A DNA stretch of 64,000 bases from the NCBI GenBank assembly GCA_973895155.1, contig OZ316899.1, positions 16,085,974-16,149,973 of the forward strand, written 5' to 3'. Below, piece after piece: positions 1-55,139 of the stretch. How positions within the stretch are numbered: position 1 is the first letter of the stretch; each line of letters starts with the position of its first letter. The notes under the pieces were generated by a model. It did not search any database, was not told the DNA's origin, and saw nothing but the letters and a program-made list of their open reading frames with translations. Both the position numbers and the translations under genes were made by a program. Source of the DNA: Marsupella aquatica (Eukaryota > Plantae > Marchantiophyta).

Positions 1-840
1 GGCTACGGTGAAGGACGACGCCGCAACCAGCGCCAGGTTCTTATATGAACAGATTTTCACCCGGTTCGGCCCACCCTTAGAATTGGTAAGCGACCGTGGA
101 ACCCACTTCCTCAATGACACTGTAGCCCAGTTTACGGAGCGTTACCTAGTCAAGCACCGCAAGACTACCCTGTATCATCCTAAGGCCAACGGGATGACAG
201 AGAGAGCCAATGGTATCATTGGGAAAATCCTCAACAAGACGGCAGCGGCGCACAAAACGGATTGGGATGATAAGTTGTACGCAGCGGTGTACTTGTATAA
301 TCTCGCTTACAAAACTACTACGAGTCACAGCCGTACTTTCTCGTGTTTGGCCAACATTCGTTGGTACCCGTCGAGTTTGAAGTACACACTCCACGAGTCA
401 GTATTCACGATCGCTTACCCGAACCTGAAAGTTCGTCAGACCGAGCTTATCAAATTGAAGCCCTAGAAGAAGCACGGCTACTAGCAGCTGGACACGCCGT
501 GAAGAATCAGGCAACTTCGAAGAAGCAACACGACAAAGGACTACGGAGGGTCGACGTCGTGGTAGGCGATCTAGTCCTTCTGTACGATAGTAGGTACATG
601 CAGTTTCCAGGGAAGCTTCATACCCGGTGGTTAGGGCCCTTCCTTGTCAATCAGATCTACCATAACGGATCTTTGGAGCTTGCGACGTATGCCGGCGATT
701 TACTCCCCACGCGAATCAGCTACGATCGTGTAAAAAAGTACCACCATCAAGATGACGACGCCGAGAGTGATGTTTGCGAGGACGCTTCACAATTAAGCAG
801 GGAGCTATGTGACGCCGCCGGTACGGCGGTTAATGAGTGA
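1..840 (+). pseudogene. Gypsy family A integrase, C-terminal half (frameshift near 330)
   Basis: ORFs 8-466 and 343-840 give RFGPPLELVSDRGTHF, YHPKANGMTERAN and the GPY/F-type WLGPF; very similar to the integrase at 59940-60743; no chromodomain; frame runs into the LTR. Confidence 0.93.
795..807 (+). other. Polypurine tract of family A element
   Basis: aagcagggagcta directly before TGTGAC at 808; preceded by gcgaggacgcttcaca, which also precedes the family C PPT. Confidence 0.75.
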
Positions 841-1166
841 TTCGGTCTAACTGCGCTCAGCACGCGCGTTAGGAGTGTCTTAGGCCGCTATTATTAGCAT
901 AACGACAGTATTTAGGTAATCATTATGGGTAGGACATCATTAGGCAATAAGGGGGAATTCAGGTTCGGACTGGCGACGGGTCGCTATTCGCACACCCGGG
1001 TTACAAGCGTGGAGGGGCCCCTCCCTCGGGTCCGTATAATGAACTTAAGGAAGCGGCCACTGACACGCGCTGACTCAGACCGGCGGAGTGGCCGGTACAC
1101 CACAAGCGTGAGCGGTTCAGCCTATGGGCGTCGAGGAGATGTCGGGGGATCGGCAAGCCCTCAAGG

Positions 1167-1173
1167 TATAAAA
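1167..1173 (+). promoter_or_regulatory. Candidate TATA box for the LTR-borne ORF of family A
   Basis: TATAAAA ~100 nt upstream of ATG 1275; conserved in solo copy (46624-46630, minus strand). Confidence 0.5.
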
Positions 1174-3286
1174 AGGGAGCCGACCCTTTGGAGTGCACCA
1201 GTCCATCAGTCCACGCGCCAGCTTCGACCCCAGCTCTCTCGTTCGCTCTAAGTTGCCACTACTATCTCCTCTGAATGTCGCACACGATCCTCTCCAGCTC
1301 GGCCATTCGATTCTGGACGCAGTTCCTATCTACCGGAAGGCACTTGGCCGACTCATTGAAACACGCCAACCCGCCCCGATACGAAATCAAACGCGAGTAT
1401 GAGAGAGCCATCCGCCTAGCAGGATGACACCACTACATCCTTAACTTTGACTACCCGTCTCAAAGCGAGCTTTACCGACCAGCAGAGGTATCTGGGTACT
1501 TCTTCAACGGAGACAAATATATCGGTTTCTGGGAAGCATTGCTTCGGCTTCCGGATGAGGTCTTCAATATCCCGGGTACGATCGACTTGCAACGACATCA
1601 CTTCGACCACATCCCTGCTCAGGTTCGGGCTATCATCAACAGCGAGTCCACCACTACCCGTTCGACAAGATCGTCCGCACTTGCTTCGAAGAACTTCTAC
1701 CAGCACCTGCAGAGCTTCATGGGAACTAGACCCGCAACCACCGACGCCAGCCCAGTGGACCCCATACCCGTACCCGTACCAACGCAGACTCAGGCTCAGG
1801 CTTAGCTTCAGTCTCAGCCTCAGCCTAGCCAACCCCCACCGCCGATCGCCCCGCCAGCAGTACAAGTACGCTCCGTCATCAACGTTGTGGACCTTAGCGA
1901 CGACGACGAGGCTACCCCACCCTTGCTCAGGCGGCCCAGAGGAGTAAACACTCAGGGGGCCGACACTGCATCGTCCCCTCCCCATGCTCGGACCCAAGGA
2001 GCGGCTCCAGCAGACAACATGGTGACCGTGGCCGCCCTGGGACCAATACTAACGGCGGTAGTACTACCTATGCCCGATCGAGAGGATGGGGAGGTGTCAC
2101 CTTCCCCGAGCCAGTCACGGGGGAAGAAGAGGAAGGAACCCGCCACTGCATCCGGGTAACCATTGGCCACGGTAGCCGTGGCCAAGGTAACAATGCACCG
2201 CATGGGGGAAAACGTGCATAAGAACATCCTCCATCCCAAGCATGCGGTGTACCTGAAGACTCAGGGATTCGAGCACCTCGCCGCTCTGCCCTGGAACACT
2301 TGCAGGTACTATGGAGAGGACATGACAGAATTCGTCAAGAATTATGATGATACACGTCAGCATATTCGACTGCGGGGAAGGAATATGTCCCTCACGGAAG
2401 AACGGCTCAGGATGATCTTCGGATTACCCGAAGGTGACCATCAAGTCGAATCACGGGCTCCTGGGGGCAAGGGAGCCAAGTACCAATCCTCAAGTTTTCC
2501 CTCGGAAGGAGCAGTGGACAACGGGTTTGTGATGAGGACCTGCCTCATCCTCGAGATAGCTGAGCGACTGGAGTTCCAGAGGTACGCCCTCCACATGATG
2601 GAACCCCGGGGGGAGATCTCCGTCGCCCAGGTTATCCAGGTCGAGAACTATCGACCTAGGAAGTGGGCGTCGTACTTCGCTAAGAAATTCCATGAAGAGA
2701 TGGAGCGGCGAAGGAAGACGCTGTACATTGGCGGGAAGGCGTATTTCGCTAGCCACATCGAGATCATTCTTGAGTGGTACGCTCGGTTTGATCGACAAAC
2801 CCTTCCCCGTGTCAACGTTACAAAGCTGGTCCCAGCTAGGTGGGTTTTTCCGGCCTTGGAGAGACGGCCCCAACCCAAGGCCCGAAGTCCAGCGGACACG
2901 CCAGCTTCACCCACCCCACCTCCACAAGTAGCTGTAGTCGTAACCGAGGAGGTACCGGATGGGTCGGTTGTCGCAACCGTTGATGCGATCCAACAGGCCA
3001 GGCTAAGTACAGAAGTCGGTACGGCGGAGGTCTTACCCGAGCCCGGGTCTCCCAAAGACCCACCGGTGGCTATTCCGGAGAACCGACATTGCTGCAGGAG
3101 GACACTCCAGCCCCTTCCAACATTACGTCCCCAGGGCTGGACGTCACTGCCCCGGCCCCCGCGCGTGTTGACGTCTGCCCGTGCCCAACTCCGGACAGGC
3201 ACAACCTGGACCACTTGGAACTCTTCGTACCGGGTACATTTCTGAACGGTCTTCTGGGAGATTTCTCTCATCAAATTGCCCGGGAT

Positions 3287-6200
3287 TGTGGTGCGTCCCA
3301 TGGCTCCCTAAACCAAGAAACCCCCCAGCTCAAGCCGATTCCCGCAAGTTTCGAGCTTGGCGAGGCCGTTTCCGCGGCTTAGCGGCATGGGACGCTGCTA
3401 ACCTTCTACTACTACTATTAACATTTTACACACATATACTGGACAGATCCTTCATCGGGTCATGAGATACGTAGCCGGCCTAATCTAGGCCTTCCCTCGT
3501 CTTCCCCTCCGTCTTGTTAGGTATGTTTGGATTCCGCCGCCGGAATGATCCCCAATAGGCTTGGTTAAGCCGCTAAGACCTCTCTCAGCTCGACACATCC
3601 AACTCTCACTCCCCTGCTTACTTTCCTTCCTTCTGTTGGTTGATGTGGGCACTCTTCACACAAGTTAATGCGACACACAAATAGCAAAATGACTCCTTCT
3701 GACTGAGCCATACCATGCACTTGCCATACAAACAGTACATCTCATACACAAGCTCTGCGAACTAAGCCGTGAGGCCAACTCTATTCAGCTCTTAGGCATG
3801 ACGAAACATGAATATACACAAGGGTCACTGTATGACTAACCGAGAGCTTCCCTTACTACTTGATCCCAGCCCGGCTGGTGCAAACTAAAAACTTGCTAAA
3901 GAAGAGGCCCTGAGCTCCCCGCTGCCCAGGTACTTATACTGGTAGTGGATCCGCCTAATTCTTTGCAGCGTAAGCCTAATCTACCTAACAGTAATCTACT
4001 TGCCCGGATCTACCTATGTACAGCAAGGCAGGAGCACAAGTGTTGCTCCTACCAGTGGAACCGCAATCCCACTAAGCGAAGTGTCAGGGCCGCTCCTGGT
4101 CCTGATCCTAATCCTAAACTTGGAGATCAGCGCCCGCCCTACCCACTCACGCCTCCTCCCTCCACGTCCGCCCTTCCTAAAAGGAACGGCGCCGTTGCAC
4201 CGTCACGACACCGGTGGTGGATCCTCAATGGACGCCCCCAACGCTTCCTCCTCAGCCACTGCCGTAGGTTCGTTTTCTGACAGATTACCTGCCCTTGACT
4301 GAGTCAACTCTCTATCGGCCTGACTGGGTCCACCATCGGCGTCGGCATTGGCTCGGGAGTCATTCTCGGCTACGGCCTCAGCCTCGGCTATGGTCTCACC
4401 GGCCTGCTCAAGAGGCGGATCTGGGATACCGGCCTCATTACTGAGTAGTTCGGCTTGGGCCGCACCATCCCCACCCTTGATGATAGCGGAATCTATTGCC
4501 GTATTCATGCCGGAGGATGGTGCTGGGTCTACCTCCTTGGTCACCACGGCCTGTGGGGTCGGATTACTCCTTGACCCTGAAGGTTTCCGCTTCTTCTTCC
4601 TTTCTGGTTCGGCAGCTGGTCCTTTCCCCTTCCCACTTACTTCCGGCACTGGTGCAGGTGGCGCGGCTTTTTCTTCGGCCAGTACCACTCCTGGTAACTT
4701 GGTTGCCCCAATTGGAGTTGGGCCTGATGAAGACAAGCACTTAAATACTGCGGCTTGTTTCTTCAGCCGCTCCGTTTGGTTGTCGGCCCGCCGTTGGAGG
4801 TTCTCCATCTTCCTTGTGATTTCCTCCAACTCCTCCTAGGTCTCATCCAGGTCCTTGCGCGCCTCCTCTAGTTCCTTCTGGGCTTCCTCCCGTTCTTGTT
4901 TCAAGGTAGTCCTCTCCTCCCGGGTTGCTCTTAGCTCCTTGTCGAGCTCTGCAATGATGACAGACTCCATCTGGTTCATCTTGGCGTAAGTCTGATCGAG
5001 CATCTCGTCCTTCTCCCTTAGGTCGGCCTTGAAGCTGGCCATCAGGGACGCAAGCTCCTGCTGTAGCGCCATAATCCCTTGATAGGATTTCGCTAACTCG
5101 GCCTCCTTCTGCTCAAGGGCTCCGCGGATTTTCTCGAGCTCCCCCATCAACGCCCATTTCTTTCTTTGGGTCTCCGCCATGGCCCGGCTGTTGGCTGTTA
5201 TGTGGGCCTCCTCTGTATTCTTCAGCTCTCGCTTCCACTTCTCCCTCTCTTTGATTGTATCGGCCAACTCTCCCTGCGTCTGAGTCAGTTTATCCTTGAT
5301 ATTCCGATTATCAGCCTGCGCGGTGTCCAACTGCCCCTGCATGATGTTCAGCTCATGCCGTTTAATCCGCAGTTCATCTTGGGCTTTCTTGGCCGCCCTT
5401 AGGTCTTCAATCTCGGCTTCCATTTTCCTGAGCCGCCGAATGACCTCGTCCTTCTTGCTTCTCTCTAAAGCCACCGCTTCTTCTAATTGGTGCTTCTCCA
5501 ACTGCTCCCTATGGAAAAAGGGTCCTACCTCCAACTCCTCTCCAAAGATGCCGAGCGCAAGTTCCCCACACATCTCACCATACTCCATGGCTCTATTCTT
5601 AGCGTAGGTGGAGTAAGTAGGAGTGATCGGCATCGCCCATCGCGGCCTCTGCTCCCAAGCCGTCTTGCGGATCTCTTCAATCGTGGCTAGAGGTTTGCTT
5701 CCTTTTTCAGCTAGCCGCCTGATGTCCTCCGGCCAATCTCCTCCTGGTAAATCCTTTTCCCTAGCCAGGGCTGCCTCCTCTTCCTACCTGATTTGCTCCT
5801 GAAATTCCTGCGCCGTCTGTTTTATGCCGTCAAAGCTCGGGGGAGCAACATCTGGTGGGGGAGACTCAGGGCTACTCTGCTGGTTGGGGTCCCCTCGTAC
5901 TACCCTTGGAAGCGTGGGGACAAACCGGCCACAGGTCCTTACTCCTGGAACGTGATGGTCCGACCCATAGCCGGAATTATCATGGCTGCAGTCCTCCACT
6001 GCCTCCTGTACTTCTTGGACGTCCGGCTTCTCCCTCTCCTCTTCGTCGGTAGGAGCTTCAGGCAATTCTGCCTCAGATTCAGAGCTTGAGACTCCCACAT
6101 ACATTCGAACACCTGGCTTGGATTCCGGCCTGATTCTCTCCTTGTCTCCAGCAAAGGGGTTTTCTCTTGTGAGCCGGTGTAGGCCTACCTCTGGAGTAGT

Positions 6201-7965
6201 GTCCTGCATTGTTGCCGTTGCCGTTGTCGTTGCCGATGCCGATGCCGATCTCTTTTCTTTCTCCAGTAGTTTCAGCAGACTCTGCATGCCTGGTTGCTGC
6301 ATTGGCAAGTCCTCCGTCCTTGGCCTAAACACCTGCTCGATCGTAGGGCTAACAAGTGGTTGAGGCTTCTCTACTAACGGCCTCGGCGTTGGAGCTTCCT
6401 CGGGTGCACTTACCTGCAGGGGAAGTACTGGGGCAAAAGTCTGACCTCTGGCATACCGGCACAACAGTGGCATGTGATAGCCAAGCCGCGACACGCTCCC
6501 CATGCCGATTACCTGCTGCTCCTCCTTTAAGATCTTCTTCAATTGGTTGAGGAGGTACCCGTTGTAGTCCCGGCTTGGGTCTGGCCTCTCTGCCAGATAG
6601 ACCTGTGCTTTGCCGATCTCTGCCCTCGGCAAGTTACAATGCATGGTCACCCGCAAGAAGTCGATCATCTCTCCTATGTGCGGGTTGGTGCAGGTGTTCC
6701 GGAAGAAGCCATTCTTCGTTGATGGCCCGGGGAACGACCGGAACTCCTTGTCAGGCAAGGTCTTCCTGGTATCAACTTTGGTCTTATTGCCTATCGGCAA
6801 GCCAAATACTTCGGCAATCACTTTGGGAGTAAGATAGAAATCCTTCCCATATATCCTCGTGCAATTGGTCTCGGGTTCCCATGACCCCACGAATTCTAAT
6901 AGGTCTGACTCCGGTACCTCCGGCTTCAGCCATGGTAATCTTACAAAGGCCTCTAAGCCGGATCCGGCCATGAAGCCTTGGTACTTCTTGGTCTGCATGG
7001 CCGTAAAGCATGCATCCTCCTCCCGTGCAAAATGTAGTTGCACCTCCATCGGTAGGGTTGCCGCCCAGCCCTTCCAGGTGTCATCCCTGGTTGGAATGGC
7101 CTTGATGGGATCGACCTCCTCCTCTTCGGCTTCTCCCTGCCTCCTGCTCTACTGCTCGGCTGGCTTCTTTGGTGCCGCCGACCTCATTCTTTTTGCCGGG
7201 GTGGCTTCATCGTTGACGGCTCCCTTCCTCTTCATCTCTGCTGCCGTGGAGGTTTCTCCTAGCACCGTTGCTTGGGTCCACCTTTCCGTGCTACCCTTTA
7301 ATTCCCAGTGTATGTCGTTGCAGTTCTTGATGGCCTCTCGGATGCCGACGACGCTGTCTTTGCAAAACAGAAGATTGTCGAGTTGATTGGAAGTAGGAGT
7401 CCACAAGAACTCGTCCTTGATGAGTTTGCGTCCTAAGAAAGCCGTATTCTGCAGCTCCCACAATCGAGCGAGCTCCTGCCGTTCTCGAGCTGCCCTTTCT
7501 GATTCCTCATCCTCGTAAGTCTTGATGTACTCAGTTGCCCGTTCGAACAGGCATCCCCAGAAATGTGCCGCTTGATTGACGTTGCTCATACCCTCCTTAG
7601 GTCGATCGTCGATATCTACTCTCTCCCCGAGTGCTTCCCTAAGCAGCTGACAGTAGTTGGCCTCCCGTAGTCGTCTGCCTAGTTCATGCTCGCAAATGAG
7701 CCACCATCTCCTACAAGCGCTCCTTACCCCTCTCCTCTTCAGGTCCTTCCTCCCGTTGATCCTTCCTAGCCGCCGACGCTTAACGCGCCCTAACCCTAAT
7801 CGAGTTTTCTCCCCCAGCGTCCTTACCTCCGGCCTCGGCCCGGGTTCCATGGTCGCCCCTAATTGTTTATATTTTCCTTGTTTTGTCCCTATACTAAGGT
7901 GTTTCTAGGGTGCCTTCCTACTTTACCCACTTAACTGGCCGAGTGATTCCTGTCTAGGCATCACA
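3287..7965 (-). mobile_element. Solo LTR-like element, family B (B1, 4679 bp)
   Basis: Termini TGTGGTGC...GCATCACA; 5-bp TSD gggat at 3282-3286 and 7966-7970; empty site visible in copy A2 (~44505); no gag/pol inside. Confidence 0.92.
4203..7850 (-). pseudogene. Family B LTR-borne ORF (~1215 codons, three in-frame TAG stops)
   Basis: ORFs 7149-7850, 5784-7049, 4836-5633 and 4203-4829 are all in one frame; N-domain, conserved domain (LLEFVGSW...LTPKVIAEVFGLPIG), acidic/Pro linker, long coiled coil. Confidence 0.85.
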
Positions 7966-9488
7966 GGGATACCGGGGAGTTCATGGCCCGGAAGGTAGCC
8001 TGTTTCTTCAATCAGGAGTTAGTTGCCGCAGTAAAGGCAGGTCGGGCCCAGTCAGAGGCCCTTCAGAGGATAGAGCGGTACCGGGTGGAGTCCGTCTACT
8101 TAAAGAATGAAGTTGCGGCTCAAGAGGCTGAGCTTCTGCAACTACAACCCAAGGTTGCAGCCGCCGATGATTTGTTAGCAAAGGCGCACGCCCTTACTGC
8201 CCTAGCCGAGCAGGCCAAAGCTGGGAACGAGGCCGAGATTGCACCACTCCGGAACCAGATTGACAGTTTGAAGAATCAAACTGTCATCTGGCAGAAGGAC
8301 CTGGAGGAGGCCGAAGAACGGGCTCAGCGGGACACTACGGAGATAGCCACGCTGCAGGCCGAGGTGGCGCGGCTCCAAACCGAGGCTGAGAAGCAAGACC
8401 AGTTGGCGGGTAAACTGATGAGCGACGCCCAGCAGCTGGAGGAGGCATGTCAGGAGGCAGCAGAGGAGACGGACGCGGCGAGGTGAGAGAACAAATCTCT
8501 GTTGGACCAGGTCCAGCTCCTCAAGGCGGACAATGACAGGCTTCGAAGGCAGCGGGATGGCCGCTCCCATTCGGGCGGCTCTGGCAAGCGTGCCAGGCAT
8601 TAGCAGCGGAGCAAGAATAGATTAGGATTAGGACTAGCTTAGTCAGGCTCTTGGGAGAGGCACCTGCCTTAGGTACAGCAGCGCTGCCATGCTGTCCAGC
8701 CTGCGTAGATTAGGATCTTCTAATAAGACACAGCCATTTTCCGGCCTGACTGTCAGCTTAGTTAGGACCTTAGTCAGTGAATCTTCGGCGAGAGGACACC
8801 CCGTCCCTCGGCCCTTAGTATTTAGTGCACCCCTCGGTAGAGGTAGGGGGGTTTTTAGTCTCAGAGTTGGACATCTGTGGTATGTGCGGGGAGTCCCGGC
8901 CTCTGGGAGTGAAAGAGTACCAAGGGGAGGGGGTAGGACTAAGCTCGCCGGGGGAGTGCAGAGCCGGGCTCCGTTGTAGTATACTCTCTCGGCCTTGAAC
9001 CTAATCATTCCGGAGCTATCGGGTCAACCAAGTGTATGCACATGTCCCCTATGTAGTAAAATCCTTTCCCATTATTTCCTTGTAAATCGAGATTGTATGC
9101 TTGTGCGCGTGTATGTGTGTGTGAATCTCGTGTATAGGTGACAACGCCGGGCCGAACGCACTACCTAAACGAGGTGCAGCTTGTGGGGATGTGGTTGCGA
9201 GCACGGGTTGAGGACCTGTATCATGGAATCCGGATCGAAGGCGGACCACACAAAGGCTTAGAAGTCCTTAAGCCGGGGTCGATCCTGTTATCGACTAAGG
9301 TACGTTCCGGCGGCGGAACACAAACCATACCTAGGAGATGTCCGTATCTAACAGTAGGCGCACTTAGCGCTAGTTTACGTGAATTAGGTGCATTACGCGC
9401 TTCCCTCCCTGCCCGAACCCTCAGATTTATGAGGGATGTGCCCGTCTAAGCTGAAGTCTGAGTTAAGGCCGAAGCCGACGACGTGACA

Positions 9489-10409
9489 GATGACTGAGAA
9501 ATGATTCTGAGAGGATTCTGAGAGCGAACCGGAAGTAGGAATAGAGGTGTTGGCCGGTTGAACCGGATTCCCTCCTAAAGTTAACTTACGGCGCTTGGGA
9601 GGTTCAACAACTTGTACCTTTGCTTCCTCTTCGTCCTCCTCTGTGTCCTCTACCTTAACAATCTCTGGATCTGGGACTCCATAAAGGACATAACTGTTCT
9701 TTGTCCCCAAAAGATTCTTCTCCTGTTTGAACAGGACTCCTGCTTGGGCATACAAATGAATCACATAGGAAGACAAGGGGGTGGCCGATTTCCCATTGAG
9801 ATTAGTTGCCAGCTTCTGTATCACATCATACAGGATGGTAGCCCAAGAGATAGTCTTCCCCTTGTAGAGGGCAGCAATGATAGTGCTCCCTACTCTCTGG
9901 ATGACTCGTTTTGGTTTCTCTGGGTATAACAGGGGAACCAGGAAAGCCAATACCCTTCTCAAGTCTCCATCTATGCACTGATTAACACTCCATCCTTCTT
10001 TCTCGTCCATCTTTCCTGCAAAGTAATCTATGGTGAGGTTCTCTCCTTGGGGAAGTAGACCAGAGCCCTCTGTATGCACTTGGTAAGCTTTGCCAATAGC
10101 CTCTTTGGTCCAAAGCTTAGGTTGGGCTCTGATGGTATTAGAAAACTCACTTGGGACTTCTCCAGTGAGTATCTCTCGGATAACATCTTCACTCTGCCAT
10201 GCCCAGGTCATCAGAAGTAGGTTGTGGCATCCCATCCTCTCTAGATCAATCCGCAACCTCTCCTTCTCTTCTGGTCCGGTTGGTAGTACAAGTCTTAGAG
10301 GCTTCAAAGCAATAGGTAAATCCTTCCTCTTAGACCTTCGAACCTCGCTCTTGACAGGGGTAGTGTCCGCCTTCGCCTTCTCAGCAGATTGGGGTCTTTG
10401 GTTCCTCAT
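9489..10409 (-). pseudogene. Family D LTR-borne ORF, N-terminal ~307 aa (truncated by A insertion)
   Basis: Matches 51330-52577 up to ...QNHFSVI; the rest of the called ORF (9393-9488) reads into LTR A. Confidence 0.85.
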
Positions 10410-11090
10410 GGTGGCTCAACCGGTTCTCGTTAAGGTGAAATCCGGTTCAGAGCGGAAGCCGGTTCAGAGCGGAAGCCGGTTCAGAGCGGAAGCCGGGTCA
10501 AACGTCTGGCCTTCCTTCTCCAAGATCGAAGCCTATTTACTTCCCCAGCCTTCCCTCCCTCTACAGGAGTAGGCTGCCACCTTACACGATTCAGTCAATT
10601 CTCTCCTATACCATGCACTCACAGAGTTATCAAGAATGGTCCTCTCATCCGGACCAAAGACCCTCAACCAGACGGAAGAGATTCCTCACACTACAGCATC
10701 GTCGCATCACTATTCGCTCGGGAGCTCAAGACTTACTTCGTTCAGCCTTGAGAGGTGTGAGGAGAGGTTCAGCCGGTTTTGGTCTCAGATTTGGCTATAG
10801 GCTGATCCAAGACTTATGGTTTAATGGTTAAGCCGCTCCTTGCATTGAGATCCTCCGGTGGAATGGACCGGACTTAGATCATTAGGGAAACCGGTTCCAT
10901 GGGTTGGGGAGGTTAAAACGGCTTTCTTCTGTCGAACCGGCCATCTCAACCAAGCAACTTTTCCGGTTAGCACCTTAAAGTGCTCATAGGAGGCTAATAG
11001 GTCTAAAAGGTCATAAGAGTTAGTGTTTCCAAGGGTTAAAATTTTAAAATTTCCCTTTTTCTCCTTTTACCAAATAAACATCATCTCACA
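9489..11090 (-). mobile_element. Family D LTR, 5' part (D1), interrupted by the family A element
   Basis: Near-identical to 51657-53250; terminus ...CATCATCTCACA at 11090. Confidence 0.9.
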
Positions 11091-11756
11091 CTTTGCGTAT
11101 TTGTTGGGCTCGGCTTAGGTGATCATTGGCCGCTGTACTCATGGCGTCCTCATGTTTCTCCTGCATGGCCTCCAGCCGATCAAGTAGCTTTTCATGCTTC
11201 CCTTGGGCTGCGGCCAAGGCCTTCTCGCTCTGAGTGGTCTGGTCTTTAGCCGCCTTCCTAAGCCTATCGACTTGCCGATTAAGACCCTGTACCTCTTCCT
11301 TTGCATCGGGTAACTCCAGCTGCACCTTTGTCAATTTCTCTTTAATCTGCTGGTTATCCAATTGGTAGTTTTCCAATTGGTTGTTCGCCACCTCTAATTC
11401 CTGCTGCTTAGCCAAGAGATCCTGTTGTGCTTGTTGATCCACCCTTGATTTAGCCACCTTTGCTTCCATGCCGCGAAGCCAAGTGATCACTTCCTCCGTA
11501 TCTACAAATGCCTTTTTGTGAATTCCCCACAATCGCGCAAGCTCCGCTCGTTCTCTAGCTGCGCGCTCCGGCTCAACATCTTCATACGTAGGTACAGCTG
11601 CCTTGCTTCTTCAAGCAAACAGCCCCAAAACTTCCCTGCCTGATTCACCGTGTTCATTCCACCAAATGCCAAGAACTTGCGCAATCTCCCAATCCACCAC
11701 ATGCACTTGAATGACAGTCGCTCCTCAATGTCGAGACCGTGTACACGAGAATGCAA
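11091..11756 (-). pseudogene. Family E LTR-borne ORF fragment (B-type N-domain fused to coiled coil)
   Basis: GMNTVNQAGKFWGCLLE vs family B GMSNVNQAAHFWGCLFE; frameshift near 11585; coiled coil 11091-11532. Confidence 0.75.
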
Positions 11757-11994
11757 AATGGCAGAGTATTGGTCTCCTCACTCCGAAGCCGCCACTTAGT
11801 GGTCTTTGTGATCAAGCATGGATTAGGTCATAACTCAAATCCCGCCGGATCTCAACCATTGGATCCTTTCCCTTATCATCTAACACGTAGTAATCGGCAT
11901 CGGTCTTAATTGTTACCTTATACTCTCTATCTATCCTTATTTAGCCATTATTTTAGGCTTAATTATTACTTCGTAATCCTGGCAAGGCATCACA
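11091..11994 (-). mobile_element. Family E LTR 5' part (B-related), interrupted by D1
   Basis: Terminus ...GGCATCACA at 11994, as in family B; carries an ORF sharing the B N-domain. Confidence 0.75.
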
Positions 11995-13547
11995 AGGACT
12001 GTTGGGCTGGTTGGGTTTTATCTGTTGTCAGCCTCTGTTCCAGAACCTCCTCTTGTGCCCTTGCCTACAAGGGAAGTACTAGGGCAAAGATCTGACTCCT
12101 GGCATACCGGCACAACAACGGGATGTGATAGCCAAGCTGGAACACGCTTCCCTGGCCGATCACCTATTGTTCCTCCTTCAAGATCTTCTTTAGTTAGGTG
12201 ATGAGGTACCCGTTGTAGTCCCGGCTTGGGTCTGGCCTCTCCGCTAGGTAGACCTGTGCCTTGCCAATCTCTGGTCTTGGCAAGTTGCAGTGCATGGTTA
12301 CCCGCAAGAAATCGATCATCTCACCAATGTGCGGGTTGGTGTAGATATTCCAAAAGAAGTCATTCTTCGTTGATGGCCCTGGGAACAATCTGAACTCCTT
12401 GTCTGGCAAGGTCTTTCGGGTATCTATTTTGGTCTTATTGCCCATCGGCAAGTCAAACACTTTGGCAATCACCTGGGGAGTGAGATAGAAATCCTTCCCA
12501 TACACCCTTGTGGAATTTGTCTCGGGATCCCATGATCCCACAAATTCCAATAAGTCAGAATCCGGCACCCCAGGCTTCAGCCACGGTAATTTCACAAAGG
12601 CTTCCAAGCCGGATCCGGCCATGAAGCCTTGGTACTTTTGAGTCTGCATAGTCGTAAAGCATGCATCTTCTCTCGTGCAAAGTATAATTGCACTTCCTCT
12701 AGGAGGGTTGACGCCCAGCCCCTCCAGGTGTCATCCCTCGTTGGAACGACATTGATTGGGTCGACCTCCTCTTCTTCGGCTTCCTTGGTGCCGCCAACCT
12801 TGTTCTCTTTGCGGGGGTGGCCTCTTTGTTGTTTGGCCCTTTCCTCTTCATGGCGGCTGTTGTGGATATTTCTCCAAGCACGGTTGCCTTTGTCCACACC
12901 TCCGTGCTACCCTTTAGGTCCCAATGTACGTCGTTGCAACGGTTGATGGCTTCTTGGATGCCGACAATTCTGTTCTCACAAAACAGAAGGTTGTCGAGCT
13001 GATTGGCAGTAGGAGTCCACAAGAACTCAGCCTTGATGAGCTCCCCTCCAAGGAAGGTAGACTTCTGCAGTTCCCATAGTCGAGCAAGCTCCTGCTGTTC
13101 TCGTGCTGCCCTTTCCGATTCTTCATCCTCGTAGGTCCCAATGTAACTACTCAGTTGCCCGGTCAAACAGGCATCCCCAAAAATGAGTAGCTTGATTGAC
13201 GTTGCTCATGCCCTCCTTGAGTTGATACTTGGTATCTTCTCCCGCCCAGAGTGCTTGCCTAAGCAGCTGACAGTAGTTGGCTTCTCGCAATCCTCTGTTT
13301 GGTTTGTGCTTGCAAATGAGCCGCCATTCCTTGTGATCGGTCCTTAACCCCCCTTGCCTGGTCTCCCTTCCCGTTGGTTACCCCTAGCCGCTGGCACTTA
13401 GCGCGCCCTAACCCTAATTGCGTTCCCTGCCGTGGCGTCCTTACTTCCGGCCTCAGCTCGGGTTCCATATTTTCCTTGTTTTGTTACTACACTAATATGT
13501 TTTCAGGGTACACTCCTGGTTTTACCATTTAGCGGCTAGGCATCACA
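11995..13547 (-). mobile_element. Family B LTR 5' part (B2, diverged, ORF frameshifted), interrupted by E
   Basis: Colinear with ~6370-7965; ORF pieces 13259-13468, 12699-13166, 12194-12649 match B1; terminus CTAGGCATCACA at 13547. Confidence 0.88.
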
Positions 13548-27549: not shown

Positions 27550-27561
27550 GCTCTGATACCA
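27550..27561 (-). other. Copia primer binding site (tRNA-iMet)
   Basis: TGGTATCAGAGC on the minus strand, 2 nt from the 5' LTR. Confidence 0.95.
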
Positions 27562-27563
27562 AT

Positions 27564-42985: not shown

Positions 42986-45900
42986 TGTCACGTCATCAGC
43001 CTTGACCTTAACTCGGGCTTCAGCTTTAAACGGGCACATCCTTCGTAAATATGAGGGTTCGGGCAGGGAGGGAAGAACGTAATGCACCTAATTCACATAA
43101 ACTAGCGCTAAGTGCGCCTACTGTTAGATACGTACATCTCCTAGGTATGGTTTGTGTTCCGCCGTCGGAACGTACCTTAGTCGATAACAGGATCGACCCC
43201 GGCTTAAGGACTTCTAAGCCTTTGTGTTTTCCGCCTTTGATCCGGATTCAATGATACAGGTCCTCAACCCGTGCTCGCAACCACATACCCGCAAGCTGCA
43301 CCCCGTGCACGACTCGGGTAGTGCGTTTGGCCCGGCGTTGTCACCTATACACGAGATTCACACACATATACACGCGCACAAGCATACAATCTCGATTTAC
43401 ACGAAGGAAATAATGGGAAAGGATTTTACTACATAGGGGACATATGCGGACACTTGGTTGACCCGACAGCTCCGGAATGAACAGGTTCAAGGCCGAGGGA
43501 GTACACTACAACGGAGCCCGGCTCCGCACTCGCCCGACGAGCTTAGTCCTACCCCCTCCCCTTGGTACTCTTTCACTCCTAGAGGTCGGGACTCCCCGCA
43601 CATACCATGGATGTCCAACTCTGAGACTAAAAACCGCCCCTGCCTCTACCAAGGGGTGCACTAAATACTAAGGGCCGGGGAACGAAGTGTCCTCCCGCCC
43701 GAAGATTTGCTGACTTAGGTCCTAACTAATCTGACTGTCAGGCCGAAAAACGGCTGTGTCTTATTAGAAGATCCTAATCTACGCAGGCTGGACAGCATGG
43801 CAGTGCTGCGGTAACTAAGGCAGGTGCCTGTCCCAATAGCCTGACTTAGCTATTCCTAACCCTATTCTATTCCTGCTCCGCCGCTAATGCCTGGCACGCT
43901 TGCCAGAGCCGCCCGAGTGGGAGCGGCCATCCCGCTGCTTATGAAGTCTGTCGTTGTCTGCCTTGAGGAGCTGGACTTGGTCCAGCAGAGATTCGTTCTC
44001 TCGCTTCGCCGCGTCTGTCTCCTCCGTTGCCTCCTCCAGTTGCTGGGCGTCGCTCGTCAGCTTGCCCGCCAGCTGGTCCTGCTTCTCGGCTTCGGTTTGG
44101 AGCCATGCCACTTTGGCCTGTAGCGTGGCTATCTTCGTAGTGTCCCGCTGGGCCCGTTCTTCGGCCTCCTCCAGGTCCTTCTGCCAGATGACAGTTTGAT
44201 TCTTCAAACTGTCAATCTGGTTCCGGAGTCGTGCAATCTCAGCCTGGTTCCCAACTTTGGCCTGCTCGGCTAGGGCGGTAAGGGCGTGCGCCTTTGCTAA
44301 CAAATCATCGGCGGCTGCAACTTTGGGTCGTAGTTGCAGAAGCTCATCCTCTTGAGCCGCAACTTCGTTCTTTAAGTATACGGGCTCCACCCGGTACCGC
44401 TCTATCCTTTGAAGGGCCTCTGACTGGGCCCGACCTACCTTTACTGCGGCAACTAACTCCTGATTGAAGAAATAGGCTACCTTCCCGGCCATGAACTCCC
44501 CGGTATCCCGGGCAATTTGATGAGAGAAATCTCCCAGAAGCCCGTTCAGAAATGTACCCGATATGAAGAGTTCCGGGTGGTCCAGGTTGTGCCTGTCCGG
44601 AGTTGGGCACGGGCAGACGTCAACATGCGCGGGGGGCAGGGCAGTGATATCCAGCCCTGGGGACATAATGTTGGAAGGGGCTGGAGTGTCCTCCTGCAGC
44701 AATGTCCGGTTTTCCGGAATAGCCACCGGTGGGTCTTTGGGAGACCCGGGCTCGAGTAAGACCTCCGCTCTACCGACTTTGGTACTTAGCCCGGCCTGTT
44801 GGATTGCATCTACGGTTGCGATAACCGACCCATCCGGTACCTCCTCGGTTACGACTACAGCTACTTGTGGGGGTGGGGTGGGTGAAGCTTGCGTGTCCGC
44901 TGGACTTCGGGCCTCGGGTTGGGGCCGTCTCTCCAAGGCCGGGAAAACCCACCTAGCTGGGACCAGCTTTGTAACGTTGACACGAGGAAGGGTTCGTCGA
45001 TCAAACCGAGCGTACCATTCAAGAATGATCTCGATGTGGCTAGCGAAGTACGCCTTCCCGCCAATGTACAGCGTCTTCCTTGGCCGCTCCATCTCTTCAT
45101 GGAATTTCTTAGCGAAGTACGACGCCCACTTCCTAGGTCGATAGTTCTCGACCTGGATAACCTGGGCGGCGGAGATCTCCCCCCGGGGTTCCATCATGTG
45201 GAGGGCGTACCTTTGGAACTCCAGTCGCTCAGCTATCTCGGGGATGAGGCAGGTCCTCATCACGAACCCGTTGTCCATTGCTCCCTTTGAGGGAAAACTC
45301 GAGGATGGTACTTGGCTCCCTTGCCCCCGGGAGCCTGTGATTCGACTCGATGGTCACCAGCGGGTAATCCAAAGATCATCTTGAGCCGTTCTTCCGTGAG
45401 GGACATATTCCTTCCCCGCAGCCGAGTATGTTGATGTGCGTCATCATAATTCTTGACGAACTCCGTCATGTCCTCCCCGTAGTACCTGCAAGTGTTCCAG
45501 GGGAGAGAGGCGAGGTGCTCGAATCCCTGAGTCTTCAGGTACACCTCATGCTTGGGATGGAGGATGTTCTTATGCACATTTTCCCCCATGCGGTGCATTG
45601 TCACCTTGGCCACGGCTACCGTGGCCAATGGTAACCCGGATGCAGTGGCGGGTTCCTTCCTCTTCTTCCCCCGTGACTGGCTCGGGGAAGGTGACACCTC
45701 CCCATCCTCTCGATCGGGGATAGGTAGTGCTACCGCCGTTAGTATTGGTCCCGGGGCGGCCACGGTCACCGTGTTGTCTGCTGGAGCCGCTCCTTGGGTC
45801 CGAGCATGGGGAGGGGATGATGTAGTGTCGGCCCCCTGAGTGTTTTCTCCTCTGGGCCGCCTGAGCAAGGGTGGGGTAGCCTCGTCGTCATCGCTAAGGT

Positions 45901-46989
45901 CCACAGCGTTGATGACGGAGCGTACTTGTACTGCTGGCGGGGCGATCGGTGGTGGGGGTTGGCTAGGCTGAGGCTGAGACTGAGGCTGAAGCTGAGCCTG
46001 AGCCTGAGTCTACGTTGGTGTGGGTATGGGTATGGGGTCCACTGGGCTGGTGCCGGCGGTTGCGGGTCTAGTTCCCATGAAGCTCTGCAGGTGCTGGTAG
46101 AAGTTCTCCGAAGCAAGTGCGGACAACCTTGTCGAACGTGTAGTGCTGGACTCGCTATTGATGATAGCCCGAACCTGAGCAGGGATGTGGTCAAAGTGAT
46201 GTCGTTTCAAGTCGATCGTACCCGGGATATTGAAGACCTTGTCCGGAAGCCGAAGCAATGCTTCCCAGAAACCGATGTATTTGTCTCCGTTGAAGAAGTA
46301 CCCAGATACCTCTGCTGGTCGGTAAAGCTCGCTCTGAGACGGGTAGTCAAAGTTAAGGATGTAGTGGTGTCGTCCTGCTAGGCGGATGGCTCTCTCGTAC
46401 TTGCGTTCGATTTTGTATCGGCGCGGGTTGGCATGTTTCAATGAGTCGGCCAAATGTCTTCCGGTAGATAGAAACTGCGTCCAAAATCGAATGGCCGAAC
46501 TGGAGAGGATCGTGTACGACATTCAGAGGAGATAGTAGTGGCGACTAAGAGAGAACGAGAGAGCTGGGGTCGAAGCTGGCGCGTGGACTGATGGACTGGT
46601 GCACTACAAAGGGTTGGCTCCCTTTTTATACCTTGAGGGCTTGTCGATCCCCCGACATCTCCTTGTTGCCTATAGGCTGAGCCGTTCACGCTTGTAGTGT
46701 ACCGGCCACTCTGCCGGTCTGAGTCACCACGTGTCAGTGGATGCCTCCCAAAGTTTGTTATACGGACCCGAGGGAGGGGCCCCTCCACGCTTGTAACCCG
46801 GGCGTGCGAATGGCGACGCGCCGCCAGCCCGAACATGAATTCCCCTTATTGACTAATGATTTCCTACTCATAATGGCTACCTAATTACTATCGTTATGCT
46901 AATCATAGCGGCCTAAGATACCCGTAACACGCATGCTAAGCACGGTTTAGACTGAATTACTCATTACTCGTCGTACCGGCGGCGTCACA
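42986..46989 (-). mobile_element. Solo LTR, family A (A2, 4004 bp)
   Basis: TGT...ACA termini; TSD caagg at 42981-42985 and 46990-46994; homologous end to end to LTR 808-9488. Confidence 0.95.
43884..46522 (-). pseudogene. Family A LTR-borne ORF, copy A2 (~880 codons; one TAG at 46010, one frameshift near 45305)
   Basis: ORFs 46010-46522 and 45260-45904 are in frame; 43884-45278 follows a 1-nt deletion relative to A1. Confidence 0.88.
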
Positions 46990-49736
46990 CAAGGAGTTTT
47001 ACTTGCAATTTCAATCATGGGCCTAGAGATTGGGAGTCATCAGTATCTCAGATAAACATACAAAATTGGCACCATAACCAACTTACAAGGTTGGCAGTGA
47101 TTTCAGAGAGACTTGCCAACTGTCAAAAAAGCCAAGTCTGTAAAGACACAATATCCGACCTTATCAGGGTATGTGACTGTGTCATTGACAATTTTCTCAG
47201 TGAGTAACAAACCAGGGTCCAAAACATCAACCTACAAACATTTTCAAAAATATAGCTAGCAACCTCGCTAGCAAAACTGATCAGCCAATATCTGGTGTTC
47301 TATAAATAAATTAAAGAGCACTCCATATGGAGTGTAAATAGAATCTCTCCCTACCAGCACACAAAAATGTCTACTTCCAATGATACTTACATATATATTA
47401 AAAACCAATGAAAACCTTAAATTAAAACCAAACCTCACTCTAAAGTGGACAATATCAAACCTCAACTCCCCTTTGGATCAGATTGGAAACTTCAGCGACA
47501 ATTAAAATAAGTCAACTACTTGACTACATCCAAAGTCTCTAGGTTCAAATGGTAAATATTCTTGTAACCCAAAGAATATGTTTGCAAGACATGTAAGGCT
47601 TTCCATGTGAATGTTGCTTATAGAAATCCTCATAGGAGCAACATTGGTGTGACACGGGCAACGTGTCACTTAACCAAACGCAGGTCCTAGATTAGGACTT
47701 ATACGGTCATTAGGACCGTAGCCATAGTGTAGAATAGCACAAATAGCCGTCTTTGCCATTATGAATAGATTAGGAGTAGGTTAGTTGACCAAATGATTAC
47801 AAATTAAGGAAGAGGATTATTACGCTTGACCGAAGTACGGTGGCGGCGGTGGAGTAAAAATCCATTAGGAGGATCACGCTTGGACCGAGACACCGACTTC
47901 AGCTCATTATCAACGACCAAAATGGCCTTGCCCTCTCACAATCGAGCTCACTCTGGCACCTCCATAAGAGCGGAGTCGATGGCGCTATGGGCCATTTTCT
48001 CATTTCTACCTTTCAAAATTCGCGGACGCTGCCATTCACTCTCGCCTTTTCTTGAATCAAGCTAACCTTTACGAGGAGATTATCGAGGGATGAGAGCGGA
48101 TTGTGGCAAGATTTAGTCAGGGCAAGTAAGGACGCCACCAGCAAGCGGACCGGCCGGGCGGGAACGCGGACTCGACGAACCAGACTACAAAGGTTAGTAT
48201 GACCCTTACAGCCTTGGGATTTTGGACCTTGTTTGGCGAGGTTGGTGCTAAGTTCTCCGAGACTTACTGGTACTCTTGCCCCGAGAAAGCCGCTCACGAA
48301 CAAAGATATGCAAAGCTGGTGACCAAGGTAGCAAAGGTTAACTGTGAGAAGAAGACAGCCGTCACCAAGGATTCCAGTTACAACGAGCTATGGGATTACA
48401 TCACCGTGCTATATATCAGTGAGAAAGGGTTCAGATCGGTGGCAGAGGCAATTCTTGAAGTTCTCGCGAAGTTTCTTTAGGCTGAGGGGCAGCCAGAGAC
48501 TGACTCCAACGGAGTTTGACAAGATTCCAGGATACATCAACCAGCAGATTACAGCCAAGAAGCGTGAAGAAGACATCAGCAGACAACGGGAAGTGGCGCG
48601 TAACCTTACGTTCCTCGGGGAAAGCTCCAACGCTTTCAACTGGGATATGGCTACCCTGACACCACCCCCAGCCCCTCAGCCGATGACCACCGGTGTACCA
48701 CCAAACCGGTCCCAAGTCCGTCCCGTGAACAACACCGAGTGTTCCTCGGGTTCCGAGCGTGCTAGTCCGCAGCTTGAGCAGCGTTCTTGGAAGCGGTCAA
48801 GGACGACGCCGGCCCCCGAATCGACAACAAAAACTAACGCCACCCTTGTACCTGCCCCGGCGAATCCCCCGACCAACTAGACCCAACGGCCCGCGGATAA
48901 TCCAAAGTCTAACTTATTACAGGTAATCCGCGTCCCTGAGGTAGTCTGGATCGTGATCAAGAAACTCGACCATGCGGACTATCTCAAGGAGCATCAGTTG
49001 GAGCAGTTTGCTCACTTGCTATGGAGACCGTGCGCAGCCGGGCCAAAGGAGATTTGTGAGTTCATCTCCAATTTTGACATTGACGCATCGACCACCAAGG
49101 TTTTAGGACAAACCTTATCACTCACGGAGCATCGGCTAGCACAGATCTTCTGCCTGCCAACTGGGCCGGTGTCAGTTGAACTCCAAATTCGGGATAAGGA
49201 GTATACACCTCGGCACTTCAAACCCAAGGGCAAGACAGACAACGGATACAAGCAGGGGTCATGCACCAACTTAATCTGTATGGAGCGGCTTAACTTCATA
49301 CGGACTACCCTACACATGATTGAGCCACGATCCGAGATCTCCCTCTGCACGATCGTACAGGTGGAACAGTACAAACGGCAGAACTGGGCCCAATTCTTTT
49401 ACTGGAGGTTCTCGGGGGAGCTTAAGCGGGCCCAGGGAGGTATGGCTATCGGGGGGAAAACTTACCTAGGAAGTCATATCGCCATCATCCTCGCCTGGTA
49501 CAAGGCACGGCGGGAGGCCAGGGGAAAGAATATGGCCACGTGAGCCCCGACTAATGTCACCCCCACTTCGGAGGAGGATACCCCGAGTGAGCGGACTACC
49601 GCGCCTCGGGCAAACCCCAAGCCGGAGGCCCCGACTAATACTCCGTCACCTCCCCGGGTTGAAATTCCGCCGCCCCCTTCCGTCAAGCCTCCGCTATCCT
49701 CGGTACAACCACCTCCAATCCCTCCACCACCTGAAG

Positions 49737-52700
49737 TGTAGAGTAGGGTTTAGAGTAAGAATAACTATTCTTCTCTTTAATAGCCTAGATTCGTTCCCGT
49801 TAAGAGCTATTGAGACCTAAAAGATTGTAATATTATACTTTGAGTACTTTTGAGTAACATACTCAGGTTACAAGCCTTTTTAACATGCTCAGGTTTATGG
49901 AAGGAATTTTATGATACTTCCATGAAAGGTATGACGTTTGTATCGTCCATAGTGCAATCAAAAAGGGGTAAAAAGTGTTAAACAAAACCAAAAGCCAGCG
50001 GCGTGAAAACTGATAGAAGGCGAGTTATAGATGGAAATACACCTTATCACTACATAGTAACTCATGACCAGCGGTAGTACATTAAGAATCATCGGTGTAA
50101 AAACTCATGTAAAACTGACGCCTACATATCCTCTTCAAACCAGCCATCTTTAGAAAATTATAAAAGATTAGCATAAGGTAGCCCGTATTGATTTTCTGAC
50201 CTATGTCAAAGCAAGGTGGTACTAATCACTCCGAACCAACTTATTCTTTTATTCAATCCATCAGATTGTTCTTTTGGATCTATGCAATTTGTGGAATTCT
50301 AGTGGTGAATTTGTATCAGCTCCTTATTGAATACAAGAGCTCTATAGTCAACACGAATCAATAGGCTTTTGCATGATCTCAAGCATGCGTTTCCAGTCAG
50401 CCTACAGGTCAACCAAGCATTACTAGTCACATCAAACAAATTTTTCTAGTAAGGGATAATCACACACTAAGATTGAATCACAAACCATAGATTACCAAAG
50501 ATTACTAAAATAGACTTCTCATTGATTAATTACTTCAAAGAGAAGGAGACTTAAAGTTGAAAGCTAATTTCATGAAAGTCATATTAAGTCTGAGGTTCAA
50601 GGAAGAATCTCTCCCTTATATATAAGAGAGATCCGCTTGAAAAACTACATGAAAAGACATGCCTTTTCATTATGTAAAAACTAATAAGGTTAACTAGATA
50701 AAAATAATTATACTGTGTGAAAGAGGAGGTCATATCACTTCCTTCCTTTCCTACAAAACATGGAAAATGGTCGGAACAAAGGCGGAAATCAAATTTCCGG
50801 TTCAACCTCCTTTTAAATATAAATTCCGGTTGAACCTGTTTTTACAGAATCCGGTTCATCCGTCTTGGTGTTTAACTATGGCTTCAGGAATTTCTGGCTC
50901 TTCAGGAATCTCTGGAGTGATATTGGGAGTAGGTGCTTGGCTTTGGAGGGGTTCTATAACATAGGTCACTCCTGTGGAGGTAGTAACAATGTTGCCAGGG
51001 GGAACCGGGTTGGTAGGATACTTGCTCATGAGGGAAGTCCAATCGAAAGGTCCGGGAGTGGTGGTACGAATGGTCCCTGAGGAAGAGGTGAAATCAGGAG
51101 CAGTAGTATCAAGAGTGGTAGGTTCTCCTGATAGAGGGGATGGAGAATACTGAACTGGTGTCTCCCCATCATCCTTAGCCCAGATCTGGTGTAACTCATT
51201 CATTTGGCCCAAAATCTCCTTCATTGCATTCAGGCAGTCCTCAAGTTTATCTCCATAGTCTTGAGAGATACGAATGACAGTAGCAAGGCAAGTAGGATTG
51301 GGTACTTTTACAAAGTACTCTCGAAAGAGTTATGTCTGGACCAAATCTCTACCTCTGGTGTTCAGGAAAGGGTCCAAACGATCCACTAAATCTTCCAGAC
51401 TCTCAATGGCTTCTTCCTCCTTCTTACTCCTCTGTCTTCTCTCTTTCAGCTGGTTTTCACAATCTGTGAGTCTAACAGACTTCTCCTTGAGGTCCTTTTC
51501 CATTCTCTCCACCTTCTCCTTGTTGCCAGCAGTCTGTATTACAGGCTCAAAGTTTGCTACTAATTCTGAGACTGGAACACCTGCTACTCGAGCCATCTTG
51601 GCCAGGTTCTGTTCCATGATACCCATCTTCACTTGTATTGCCTCCATCTCTCGCTGGATGACTGAGAAATGATTCTGAGAGGATTCTGAGAGCGAACCGG
51701 AAGTAGGAATAGAGGTGCTGGCCGGTTGAACCGGATTCCCTCCTAAAGTTAACTTACGGCGCTTGGGAGGTTCAACAACTTGTACCTCTGCTTCCTCTTC
51801 ATCCTCTTCTGTGTCCTCTACCTTAACAATCTCTGGATCTGGGACTCCATAAAGGACATAACTGTTCTTTGTCCCCAAAAGATTCTTCTCCTGTTTGAAC
51901 AGGACTCCTGCTTGGGCATACAAATGAATCACGTAGGAAGACAAGGGGGTGGCCGATTTCCCATTGAGATTAGTTGCCAGCTTCTGTATCACATCATACA
52001 GGATGGTAGCCCAAGAAATAGTCTTCCCCTTGTAGAGGGCAGCAATGATAGTGCTCCCTACTCTCTGGATGACTTGTTTTGGTTTCTCTGGGTATAACAG
52101 GGGAACCTGGAAAGCCAATACCCTTCTCAAGTCTCCATCTATGCACTGATTAACACTCCATCCTTCTTTATCGTCCATCTTTCTTGCAAAGTATTCTATG
52201 GTGAGGTTCTCTCCTCGGGGAAGTAGACCAGAGCCATCTGTACGCACTTGGTAAGCTTTGCCAATAGCCTCTTTGGTCCAAAGCTTAGGTTGGGCTCTGA
52301 TGGTATTAGAAAACTCACTTGGGGCTTCTCCAGTGAGCATCTCTTGGATAACATCTTCACTCTGCCATGCCCAGGTCATCAAAAGTAGGTTGTGGCATCC
52401 CATCCTCTCTAGATCAATCCGCAACCTCTCCTTCTCTTCTGGTCCGGTTGGTAGTACAGGCCTTAGAGGCTTCAAAGCAATAGGTAAATCCTTCCTCTTA
52501 GACCGTTGAACCTCGCTTTTGACAGGGGTAGTGTCCGCCTTCGCCTTCTCAGCAGATTGGGGTCTCTGGTTCCTCATGGTGGCTCAACCGGTTCTCGTTA
52601 AGGTGAAATCCGGTTCAGAGCGGAAGCCGGTTCAGAGCGGAAGCCGGTTCAAACGTCTGGCCTTCCTTCTCCAAGATCGAAGCCTATTTACTTCCCCAGC

Positions 52701-55042: not shown

Positions 55043-55059
55043 TGGCGCTAGATGGAGGG
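55043..55059 (+). other. Primer binding site, tRNA-Asn-like
   Basis: TGGCGCTAGAtGGAGGG, one mismatch to TGGCGCTAGAAGGAGGG (complement of the plant tRNA-Asn 3' end as recalled). Confidence 0.75.
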
Positions 55060-55139
55060 GGCACTCATTTCACCTTACGAGTGGAGCCGTGTAGTGAGCT
55101 ATTAACCTTCGATTTTGTCCTTGACGCGTAGCAAGGGGC

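Follow-up and report, generated by a model that had tools for sequence, protein, structure and literature searches.

Long open reading frames (ORFs), read in the sense direction of the element, were found to lie within the long terminal repeats (LTRs) of Ty3/Gypsy retrotransposons in the liverwort Marsupella aquatica. The elements occupy a window of 64,000 nucleotides (contig OZ316899.1, positions 16,085,974 to 16,149,973 of the assembly), in which LTRs of families A to E were distinguished. The LTR gene is under purifying selection in the A and B/E families, and its core recurs behind integrase in metagenome relatives, one of which keeps the ORF outside the LTR. The predicted fold of the core suggests a VANC/PMD-type DNA-binding protein that may keep its own family expressed against host silencing, a proposal we regard as evenly balanced.

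Element C has two direct LTRs, 93–95% identical, which flank a primer-binding site (PBS), gag, protease, reverse transcriptase–ribonuclease H, integrase and a polypurine tract (PPT), and the same sense frame is present in both. The 3′ LTR of element A, A1, begins TGTGA directly past integrase and the purine tract and is 91–93% identical to solo LTR A2, with the same ends; the junction of A lacking the inserted solo LTR B was present in contigs of four out of four public runs. In both A and C the integrase frame crosses the PPT and continues for about 41 bases of LTR before its stop, so that there is no spacer between pol and LTR, as a preliminary description of the window had stated. End inspection and self-comparison of A2, B and D2 gave TG..CA ends and 5-bp target-site duplications (TSDs), and each of these three solo LTRs contains a sense frame, ranging from 573 to 1215 codons. 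They contain no internal direct repeat of 30 bp or more, and cannot therefore be small elements that have short LTRs themselves. The long sense ORF within the LTR, its approximate length in A, B and D (880, 1215 and 573 codons) and the presence of two gene copies per element and one per solo LTR had all been described correctly. No attached gag-pol was seen for B, D or E within the window.

The A frame runs from an ATG at LTR position +468 to a stop at +3106, giving approximately 880 codons. The B frame contains three in-frame stops and no frameshift, while the fewest stops obtained in 1000 shuffles was 27; the D2 frame contains one stop, compared to a minimum of 15 in shuffles. The preliminary description held that lesions mostly differ between paired copies, and this was found for A, where none of seven lesions is common to A1 (four stops and one frameshift) and A2 (one stop and one frameshift); one A1 stop position is also read differently by nearly all of the depth in all four public runs. 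It was not found for C, the two LTRs of which have four stops in common, one of them in the region of the coiled coil and the other three close to the 5′ end, indicating that the parent of C was already broken at those sites. A single open family frame is consequently established for A by the non-shared lesions and not fully for C. The supposed common layout of five families stood for the frames of B and D, while ‘E’ proved to be two distinct truncated LTRs, E1 and E2. The core-less E2 could be a dominant-negative or parasitic form, judging from its domain content. All LTRs in the window begin TGTGA in the ORF sense as described, but this start is not diagnostic, as relatives begin TGTGG, TGTCA or TGAGG.

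Selection was estimated as the ratio of nonsynonymous to synonymous substitution (dN/dS) from pairwise codon counts, with confidence intervals given in brackets. Comparison of B with E1 gave 0.22 (0.17–0.29, 480 codons), the core giving 0.12 and the N-terminal part 0.33, and the two halves of the A2–A1 comparison gave 0.37 (0.24–0.56, 648 codons) and 0.20 (0.10–0.36, 203 codons). All of these limits are below 1, the outcome expected if the ORF is a maintained gene, and dropping CpG codons lowered the A and B ratios further still. The LTR pair of C, identical at insertion, gave 0.67 (0.39–1.25), which is no significant departure from neutral, and 0.32 (0.13–1.00, 119 codons). The low ratios between copies together with the near-neutral C pair indicate a gene that is functional in active lineages and decays after insertion. 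The ratio for D2 against D1, 0.49 (0.20–1.27), was not significant and weighs against a general claim of constraint. Relatives gave 0.11–0.41 on short overlaps, synonymous sites being otherwise saturated.

The LTR ORF encodes a core of approximately 195 residues followed by a low-complexity linker and then by a coiled coil, with an optional N-terminal domain in front. In A1 the parts are an N-terminal domain, a linker, the core (2193–2786), a Pro-rich linker and the coiled coil; the B core is at 7073–6420. The A, B, C and E cores align at 24–41%, and when their profile was compared with a D-type profile using hhalign a probability of 89.5% was obtained (E 2e-6, 163 columns; reversed control 0.2%), an earlier comparison with only two D rows having given a non-significant 0.5%. 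A D-only profile retrieved A1, the 5′ copy of C, B and the 3′ copy of C as the first four outsiders among 4699 frames. On these profile comparisons all of the LTR ORF families share one core. The protein family comprised 932 clusters (50% identity) at E ≤ 0.001 in a profile search; the A2 frame had no homologue in a word-index search, and it was by profile searches that relatives were found. A scan of viral_contigs gave no relative, and Pfam gave no family above cut-off, DUF1985, PMD, ATHILA and Transposase_28/32 included, in the 59 of 150 listed proteins that were scanned. Basic motifs resembling nuclear localisation signals (NLSs) occur in most frames, and no hydrophobic or transmembrane segment was detected in the 12 frames scanned, the highest 19-residue hydropathy being 1.45.

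Using integrase as the query, 78 metagenome loci were retrieved (designated L with a number), and the core domain was present downstream of integrase in 11 of them. Four of these 11 contain whole open frames of 632–853 codons, on contigs in which many copies may have been collapsed. A conserved word, the PPT and a TG stand directly past integrase in A, C and nine loci. The start behind integrase recurs as an inverted match (9/9 bases in L003, 10/11 in L008) at the LTR end that precedes the PBS, which places the ORF inside the LTR in these two loci as well. The layout recurs in independent relatives. The LTR start lies upstream of the ORF in A, C, L003 and L008, and downstream of it only in L002. 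In the circular contig of L002 the order is pol, a purine tract without TG, a 745-codon frame, the conserved word with PPT and TG, a 990-bp LTR, PBS and gag. The L002 ORF is internal, as in Athila, and a location inside its LTR was rejected because of the second PPT and TG past the ORF; the suggestion that the gene is of a kind other plant elements keep internally is borne out by this copy.

The L002 purine tracts at 3745–3770 and 6535–6575 flank the ORF, and the conserved upstream motif and the TG occur only at the second. In B, a stretch resembling the first type of L002 tract lies just past the ORF stop (approximately window 4170–4195). The segment behind the ORF in A–D measures 0.9–1.1 kb, comparable to the LTR of L002 at about 990 bp. 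The simplest reading, and a likely one, is that the tract used for plus-strand priming has shifted, carrying the 5′ boundary of the LTR across the gene; the gene probably entered the LTR, as the preliminary description proposed, because priming moved to the tract right past pol. Two observations weigh against this direction. The grouping of the LTR-ORF clade had a tree support of 83/85 and the alternative was kept by the approximately unbiased (AU) test (p 0.27), and in L005 and L041, which are close to L002, a TG stands directly past the post-pol tract, so that L002 may be the derived state. The tree was built from 20 of 41 available rows of window, metagenome and liverwort sequences, and placed element C and nine metagenome elements in one clade with support of 100/100. 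The word of approximately 18 bases before the PPT (770–807 and 60667–60700; L001–L010, L027) is conserved though the integrases are only 50–60% identical, and is likely to be a signal for priming, packaging or dimerisation.

Indirect signs favour a location of the ORF in U3, as proposed in the preliminary description: the B frame begins with an ATG 116 bases into the LTR, and TATA-like boxes follow the ORF in B (3938, 265 bases after the stop), D (about 234 bases after the stop) and L010. Boxes of this type are also found before the ORF in A, D and L006, so that a promoter of its own, or a location in R, is possible for the gene. The absence of a TATA-like box downstream of the ORF in A and C counts against U3 and, with the upstream boxes of A and D, makes R a possible location.

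The best named relatives of the integrases were from Calypogeia fissa (61–72% identity), followed by Marchantia and Riccia. Lineages were compared by the Athila, Phygy and Tat characters (TSD, PBS, archaeal ribonuclease H (aRH) and extra ORF) as described in PMC6317226. The 5-bp TSDs of the solo copies are those of Athila, as is the PBS of L002, L003 and L008, which matches 17–18 of the 19 bases of the published FIDEL tRNA-Asp PBS. The PBS of C differs from this Asp type and is possibly tRNA-Asn-like. Between the LTR end and the PBS lies a gap of unusual length and variability, from 5 to 16 bases (window 55026–55041; L002, L003, L008). The aRH of Tat was not detected by Pfam at E ≤ 0.01 in the pol frames of L002, L003 and L008, and neither aRH nor chromodomain was matched in three open pol frames of relatives or in the gag-protease frame and integrase of C. 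The extra ORF, in Athila internal between pol and the 3′ LTR, has this position only in L002 and not in A, C, L003 or L008. Phygy, with a 4-bp TSD (NCGN), a tRNA-Trp PBS and no extra ORF, was rejected on the 5-bp TSDs, the Asp-type PBS of the relatives and the long ORF, and the sister integrase clade gave no assignment to it; Tat (TatI–III, Ogre and Retand) was ruled out as aRH was undetected in the pol frames of L002, L003 and L008. By TSD, PBS type and absent aRH and chromodomain the elements fit an Athila-like Ty3/Gypsy lineage.

The core of L010, a D-type relative, was modelled with a predicted local distance difference test (pLDDT) of 91 and a predicted template modelling score (pTM) of 0.89. 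When the model was compared with 48,161 chains, the best match was VANC21 on DNA (Z 7.6, root-mean-square deviation 3.8, 185/197 residues, 15% identity) and the next-best had a Z of 4.0. The VANC21 match is made more credible by its coverage of the whole domain, by weak and separate leads to ATHILA ORF-1 and Transposase_32, and by the structural similarity of the PMD and VANC domains reported in 10.1101/2024.09.27.615353 and PMC13547354. Several points weigh against it. A Z of 7.6 is in the range typical for a best match that lacks a Foldseek hit, and values below 8 can be due to chance; Foldseek itself gave nothing at E ≤ 0.001 in PDB or BFVD, a second look at its 326 chains giving only Z 2.3. 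The A core was modelled poorly (pLDDT 47) and did not retrieve VANC21. The Pfam matches to Transposase_32 were far below cut-off (2/14 and 2/59 proteins, E 0.005–0.12), and the Atlas scores for ATHILA ORF-1 (0.89) and Transposase_32 (0.88) are, being below 0.9, leads only. A sequence search for solved structures gave none for the LTR protein.

On the evenly balanced proposal of an anti-silencing factor, the product would be a nuclear, oligomeric coiled-coil protein with a VANC/PMD-type core, which would bind short words of its own element family and keep that family expressed. VANC21 is reported to recognise a short motif found at high density in the transposon that encodes it, and to cause methylation loss across this transposon (PMC5735166). 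The protein would act in trans, solo LTRs with an intact frame supplying it and copies with a broken frame still being mobilised. Plus-strand priming would have come to start at the tract directly past pol, and the gene and the ancestral 1-kb LTR would thereby have become the repeat. The more specific version, in which the LTR carries a self-contained VANC-like, sequence-specific anti-silencing cassette of promoter, ORF and poly(A) signal, obtained through an upstream shift of the plus-strand primer, is offered tentatively and is the less probable form.

Candidate target words were found in several families. AACCGG occurs 12 times in non-coding D2 (0.6 expected), TCCGGA 16 times in L010 and 27 times in L008, and the D-type families are rich in CCGG words, with z up to +30 for single 6-mers. 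ATTAGG, a word picked after looking, occurs three, five and eight times in A, B and C, with less than one expected. CpG retention was 0.80 for the gag-pol of C, 0.85 for A2 and 0.70 for B compared to 0.39 for the neighbouring Copia element; the observed/expected CpG ratio of the L002 pol was 0.07. Other observations speak against an anti-silencing function. CCGG is at 2–4 times the dinucleotide expectation across the whole of L003, L004, L006–L008 and L010, coding DNA included (observed/expected CpG 0.8–1.1), and the enrichment of CCGG words is equally strong in gag-pol and in the LTR, while the motifs of VANC21 are described as mainly non-coding (PMC5735166); the enrichment could be a product of methylation-driven decay. 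In a 6-mer null test no word passed in A, B or L002, and C and D passed narrowly. CpG retention was 0.44 for D2 and reached 0.92–0.96 in loci without the gene. Host MAIN/MAIL proteins with the same fold are reported to promote silencing (PMC5418596), so that from the fold alone the effect could go either way.

A serious though doubtful alternative is that the protein simply regulates transcription from the element's own LTR promoter, either as a Tas/Tax-like transactivator or as a copy-number repressor, and leaves silencing marks untouched. The DNA-binding type of fold and the NLS-like motifs would suit this, and such a role has been proposed for the Retand TRP28 proteins (PMC11963269) and for other additional ORFs (PMC7264820). 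The sole solved match is, however, an anti-silencing factor, and A, B and C retain more CpG than the Copia element; neither point is decisive.

All five nested insertions in the window are within the LTR ORF of a related family, four of them in the linker past the core, and targeting is a possible explanation for this small sample. Together with the long coiled coil this would be expected of a protein with a role in integration or the particle, for example in tethering the pre-integration complex to the chromatin of related elements. Such a role is unlikely, since the five events come from one window dense in transposable elements (TEs) in which the ORF makes up about two thirds of each LTR, and since neither a chromodomain nor an integrase fusion was found. 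A role as an env-like membrane protein or as a movement protein, which has been suggested for the sense 3′ ORF in Athila, would agree with a sense ORF past pol in an Athila-like element, with the coiled coil and with the Atlas lead to ATHILA ORF-1; it is very improbable given that none of the 12 frames has a hydrophobic segment, that no viral structure was matched and that the closest structure in the fold comparison is a DNA-binding one. The broken state of all copies in the window and the shared stops of C would suggest that the frames are neutral passengers, or artefacts of composition in long GC-rich LTRs. This is scarcely credible in view of the dN/dS range of 0.12–0.37, the near-open B frame compared with its shuffles and the homologous frames that are open in relatives whose synonymous sites are saturated, and is refuted for B/E and A.

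The positions of the elements are given in the table. They form a nested stack, B being inserted in A, A in D1, D1 in E2 and E2 in E1, with D2 in C.

Positions and strands of LTRs, LTR ORFs and associated features in the 64,000-nucleotide window
Feature	Position	Strand	Remarks and basis
Integrase of element A, 3′ end	1..840	+	Pfam rve; frame 301-840 through PPT, stop inside LTR
Pre-PPT motif and polypurine tract, adjoining LTR TG	770..807	+	nhmmer profile; also at 60667 and 10 loci
LTR A1, 3′ LTR of element A	808..9488	+	about 4.0 kb, split by solo LTR B
TATA-like box	1167..1173	+	108 bases 5′ of A ORF start; candidate own promoter, from sequence
LTR ORF of A1	1275..8603	+	about 880 codons, interrupted by 4 stops, 1 frameshift and insertion B
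Solo LTR B	3287..7965	-	4679 bp, TSD GGGAT
LTR ORF of B	4203..7850 (7850 to 4203)	-	1215 codons, one frame, 3 stops
LTR D1, 5′ part	9489..11090	-	ORF start and core; cut by insertion of A; 96% identity to D2
LTR E2, truncated	11091..11994	-	B-like N-terminal part fused to coiled coil, core absent; tblastn/tblastx against B
LTR E1, truncated	11995..13547	-	about 78% identical to B; N-terminal part and core
Solo LTR A2	42986..46989	-	4004 bp, TSD CAAGG; ORF 46522-43884, 1 stop and 1 frameshift
5′ LTR of element C	47648..55025	+	3859 bp plus inserted D2; ORF end 54040
Solo LTR D2	49737..53250	-	3514 bp, TSD TGAAG; ORF 52577-50856, 573 codons, 1 stop
PBS of C	55042..55060	+	16 bases past LTR end; from sequence
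gag-pol of C	55125..60743	+	zinc knuckle, protease, stop-broken reverse transcriptase-ribonuclease H, integrase; Pfam, tblastn
3′ LTR of C	60701..64000	+	same ORF, ending 63570; cut by window end

The remainder of the window contains Helitron remnants, a Ty1/Copia element whose 368-bp LTRs are 95% identical, and a fragment of a host SBP-domain gene (18242–21309, 21731–27923 and 32819–35676), and arrays of GATGTC-containing repeats at 16300–18100. No Rfam match was obtained in the window or in four metagenome loci.

When compared by the lineage characters, the elements resemble Athila in the 5-bp TSD, the tRNA-Asp-type PBS of the relatives, the missing aRH and chromodomain, the sense accessory ORF past pol and the Atlas lead to ATHILA ORF-1, and differ in having the ORF inside the LTR with no pol-to-LTR spacer, in lacking a transmembrane segment and in a bryophyte-type host. 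The extra ORFs of Tat, Ogre and Retand (PMD or Transposase_28 with a coiled coil) have the same succession of core, linker and coiled coil, predicted DNA binding and a fold that is likely to be PMD-related, but are described as internal, either upstream of gag or antisense past pol (PMC4408406, PMC7264820), in elements that carry aRH, undetected here. VANC21 of VANDAL21 (PDB 9LNK) is likewise element-encoded, has a coiled coil and can be superposed on 185 of 197 residues of the predicted core; some of the present families are, like its own transposon, rich in a short repeated word. It is however the product of a Mutator-like DNA transposon and not of a retrotransposon, the identity is 15% and the Z only 7.6, the motifs here are also in coding DNA and the function here is predicted. 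Retroviral genes that lie in or overlap U3, such as mouse mammary tumour virus (MMTV) sag, lentiviral nef and foamy virus bel/bet, are similarly duplicated with the LTR by reverse transcription, but encode unrelated proteins and are shorter or only overlap U3, in contrast to the 570–1215 codons placed wholly inside the LTR of an intracellular plant element. Retrosat2, RIRE3 and RIRE8 (Tekay) combine LTRs of more than 3 kb with an extra ORF, ORF0, which is however reported upstream of gag-pol (PMC3485330) in elements classed as chromoviruses (PMC6317226).

PMC7264820 places additional plant-element ORFs in the internal region, and PMC4408406 reports moss Tat-like elements without extra ORFs. 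Sense extra ORFs of gymnosperm TatII elements are given as upstream of the polyprotein in 23% and downstream in 26% (PMC6317226); similar rates on both sides are the pattern LTR-borne ORFs would give, and could be an unrecognised precedent if those ORFs lie in LTRs. Full-text literature searches, with subscription papers and Repbase outside their coverage, turned up no plant Ty3/Gypsy lineage described as having an ORF inside its LTR, in keeping with the novelty suggested in the preliminary description. An accessory gene of a known kind is here arranged in a new way, and this layout is widespread in the clade.

The finding breaks the working rule that LTRs are non-coding and makes solo LTRs potential genes. 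This matters for annotating TEs and genes in mosses and liverworts, and for the interpretation of solo-LTR formation. As L002, with its internal copy, suggests, genes may pass into or out of an LTR by a simple change of the polypurine tract in use. With a compact, confidently modelled core and candidate target words the anti-silencing idea is directly testable. If it is true, an anti-silencing protein would be known for the first time from a plant LTR retrotransposon, and the extra ORFs of Athila, Tat, Ogre and Retand, whose function in plant Ty3/Gypsy elements is described as an open question (PMC7264820, PMC11963269), would acquire a long-missing explanation. Solo LTRs, usually a dead end to which host purging leads, would in that case go on supplying a trans factor that protects the family.

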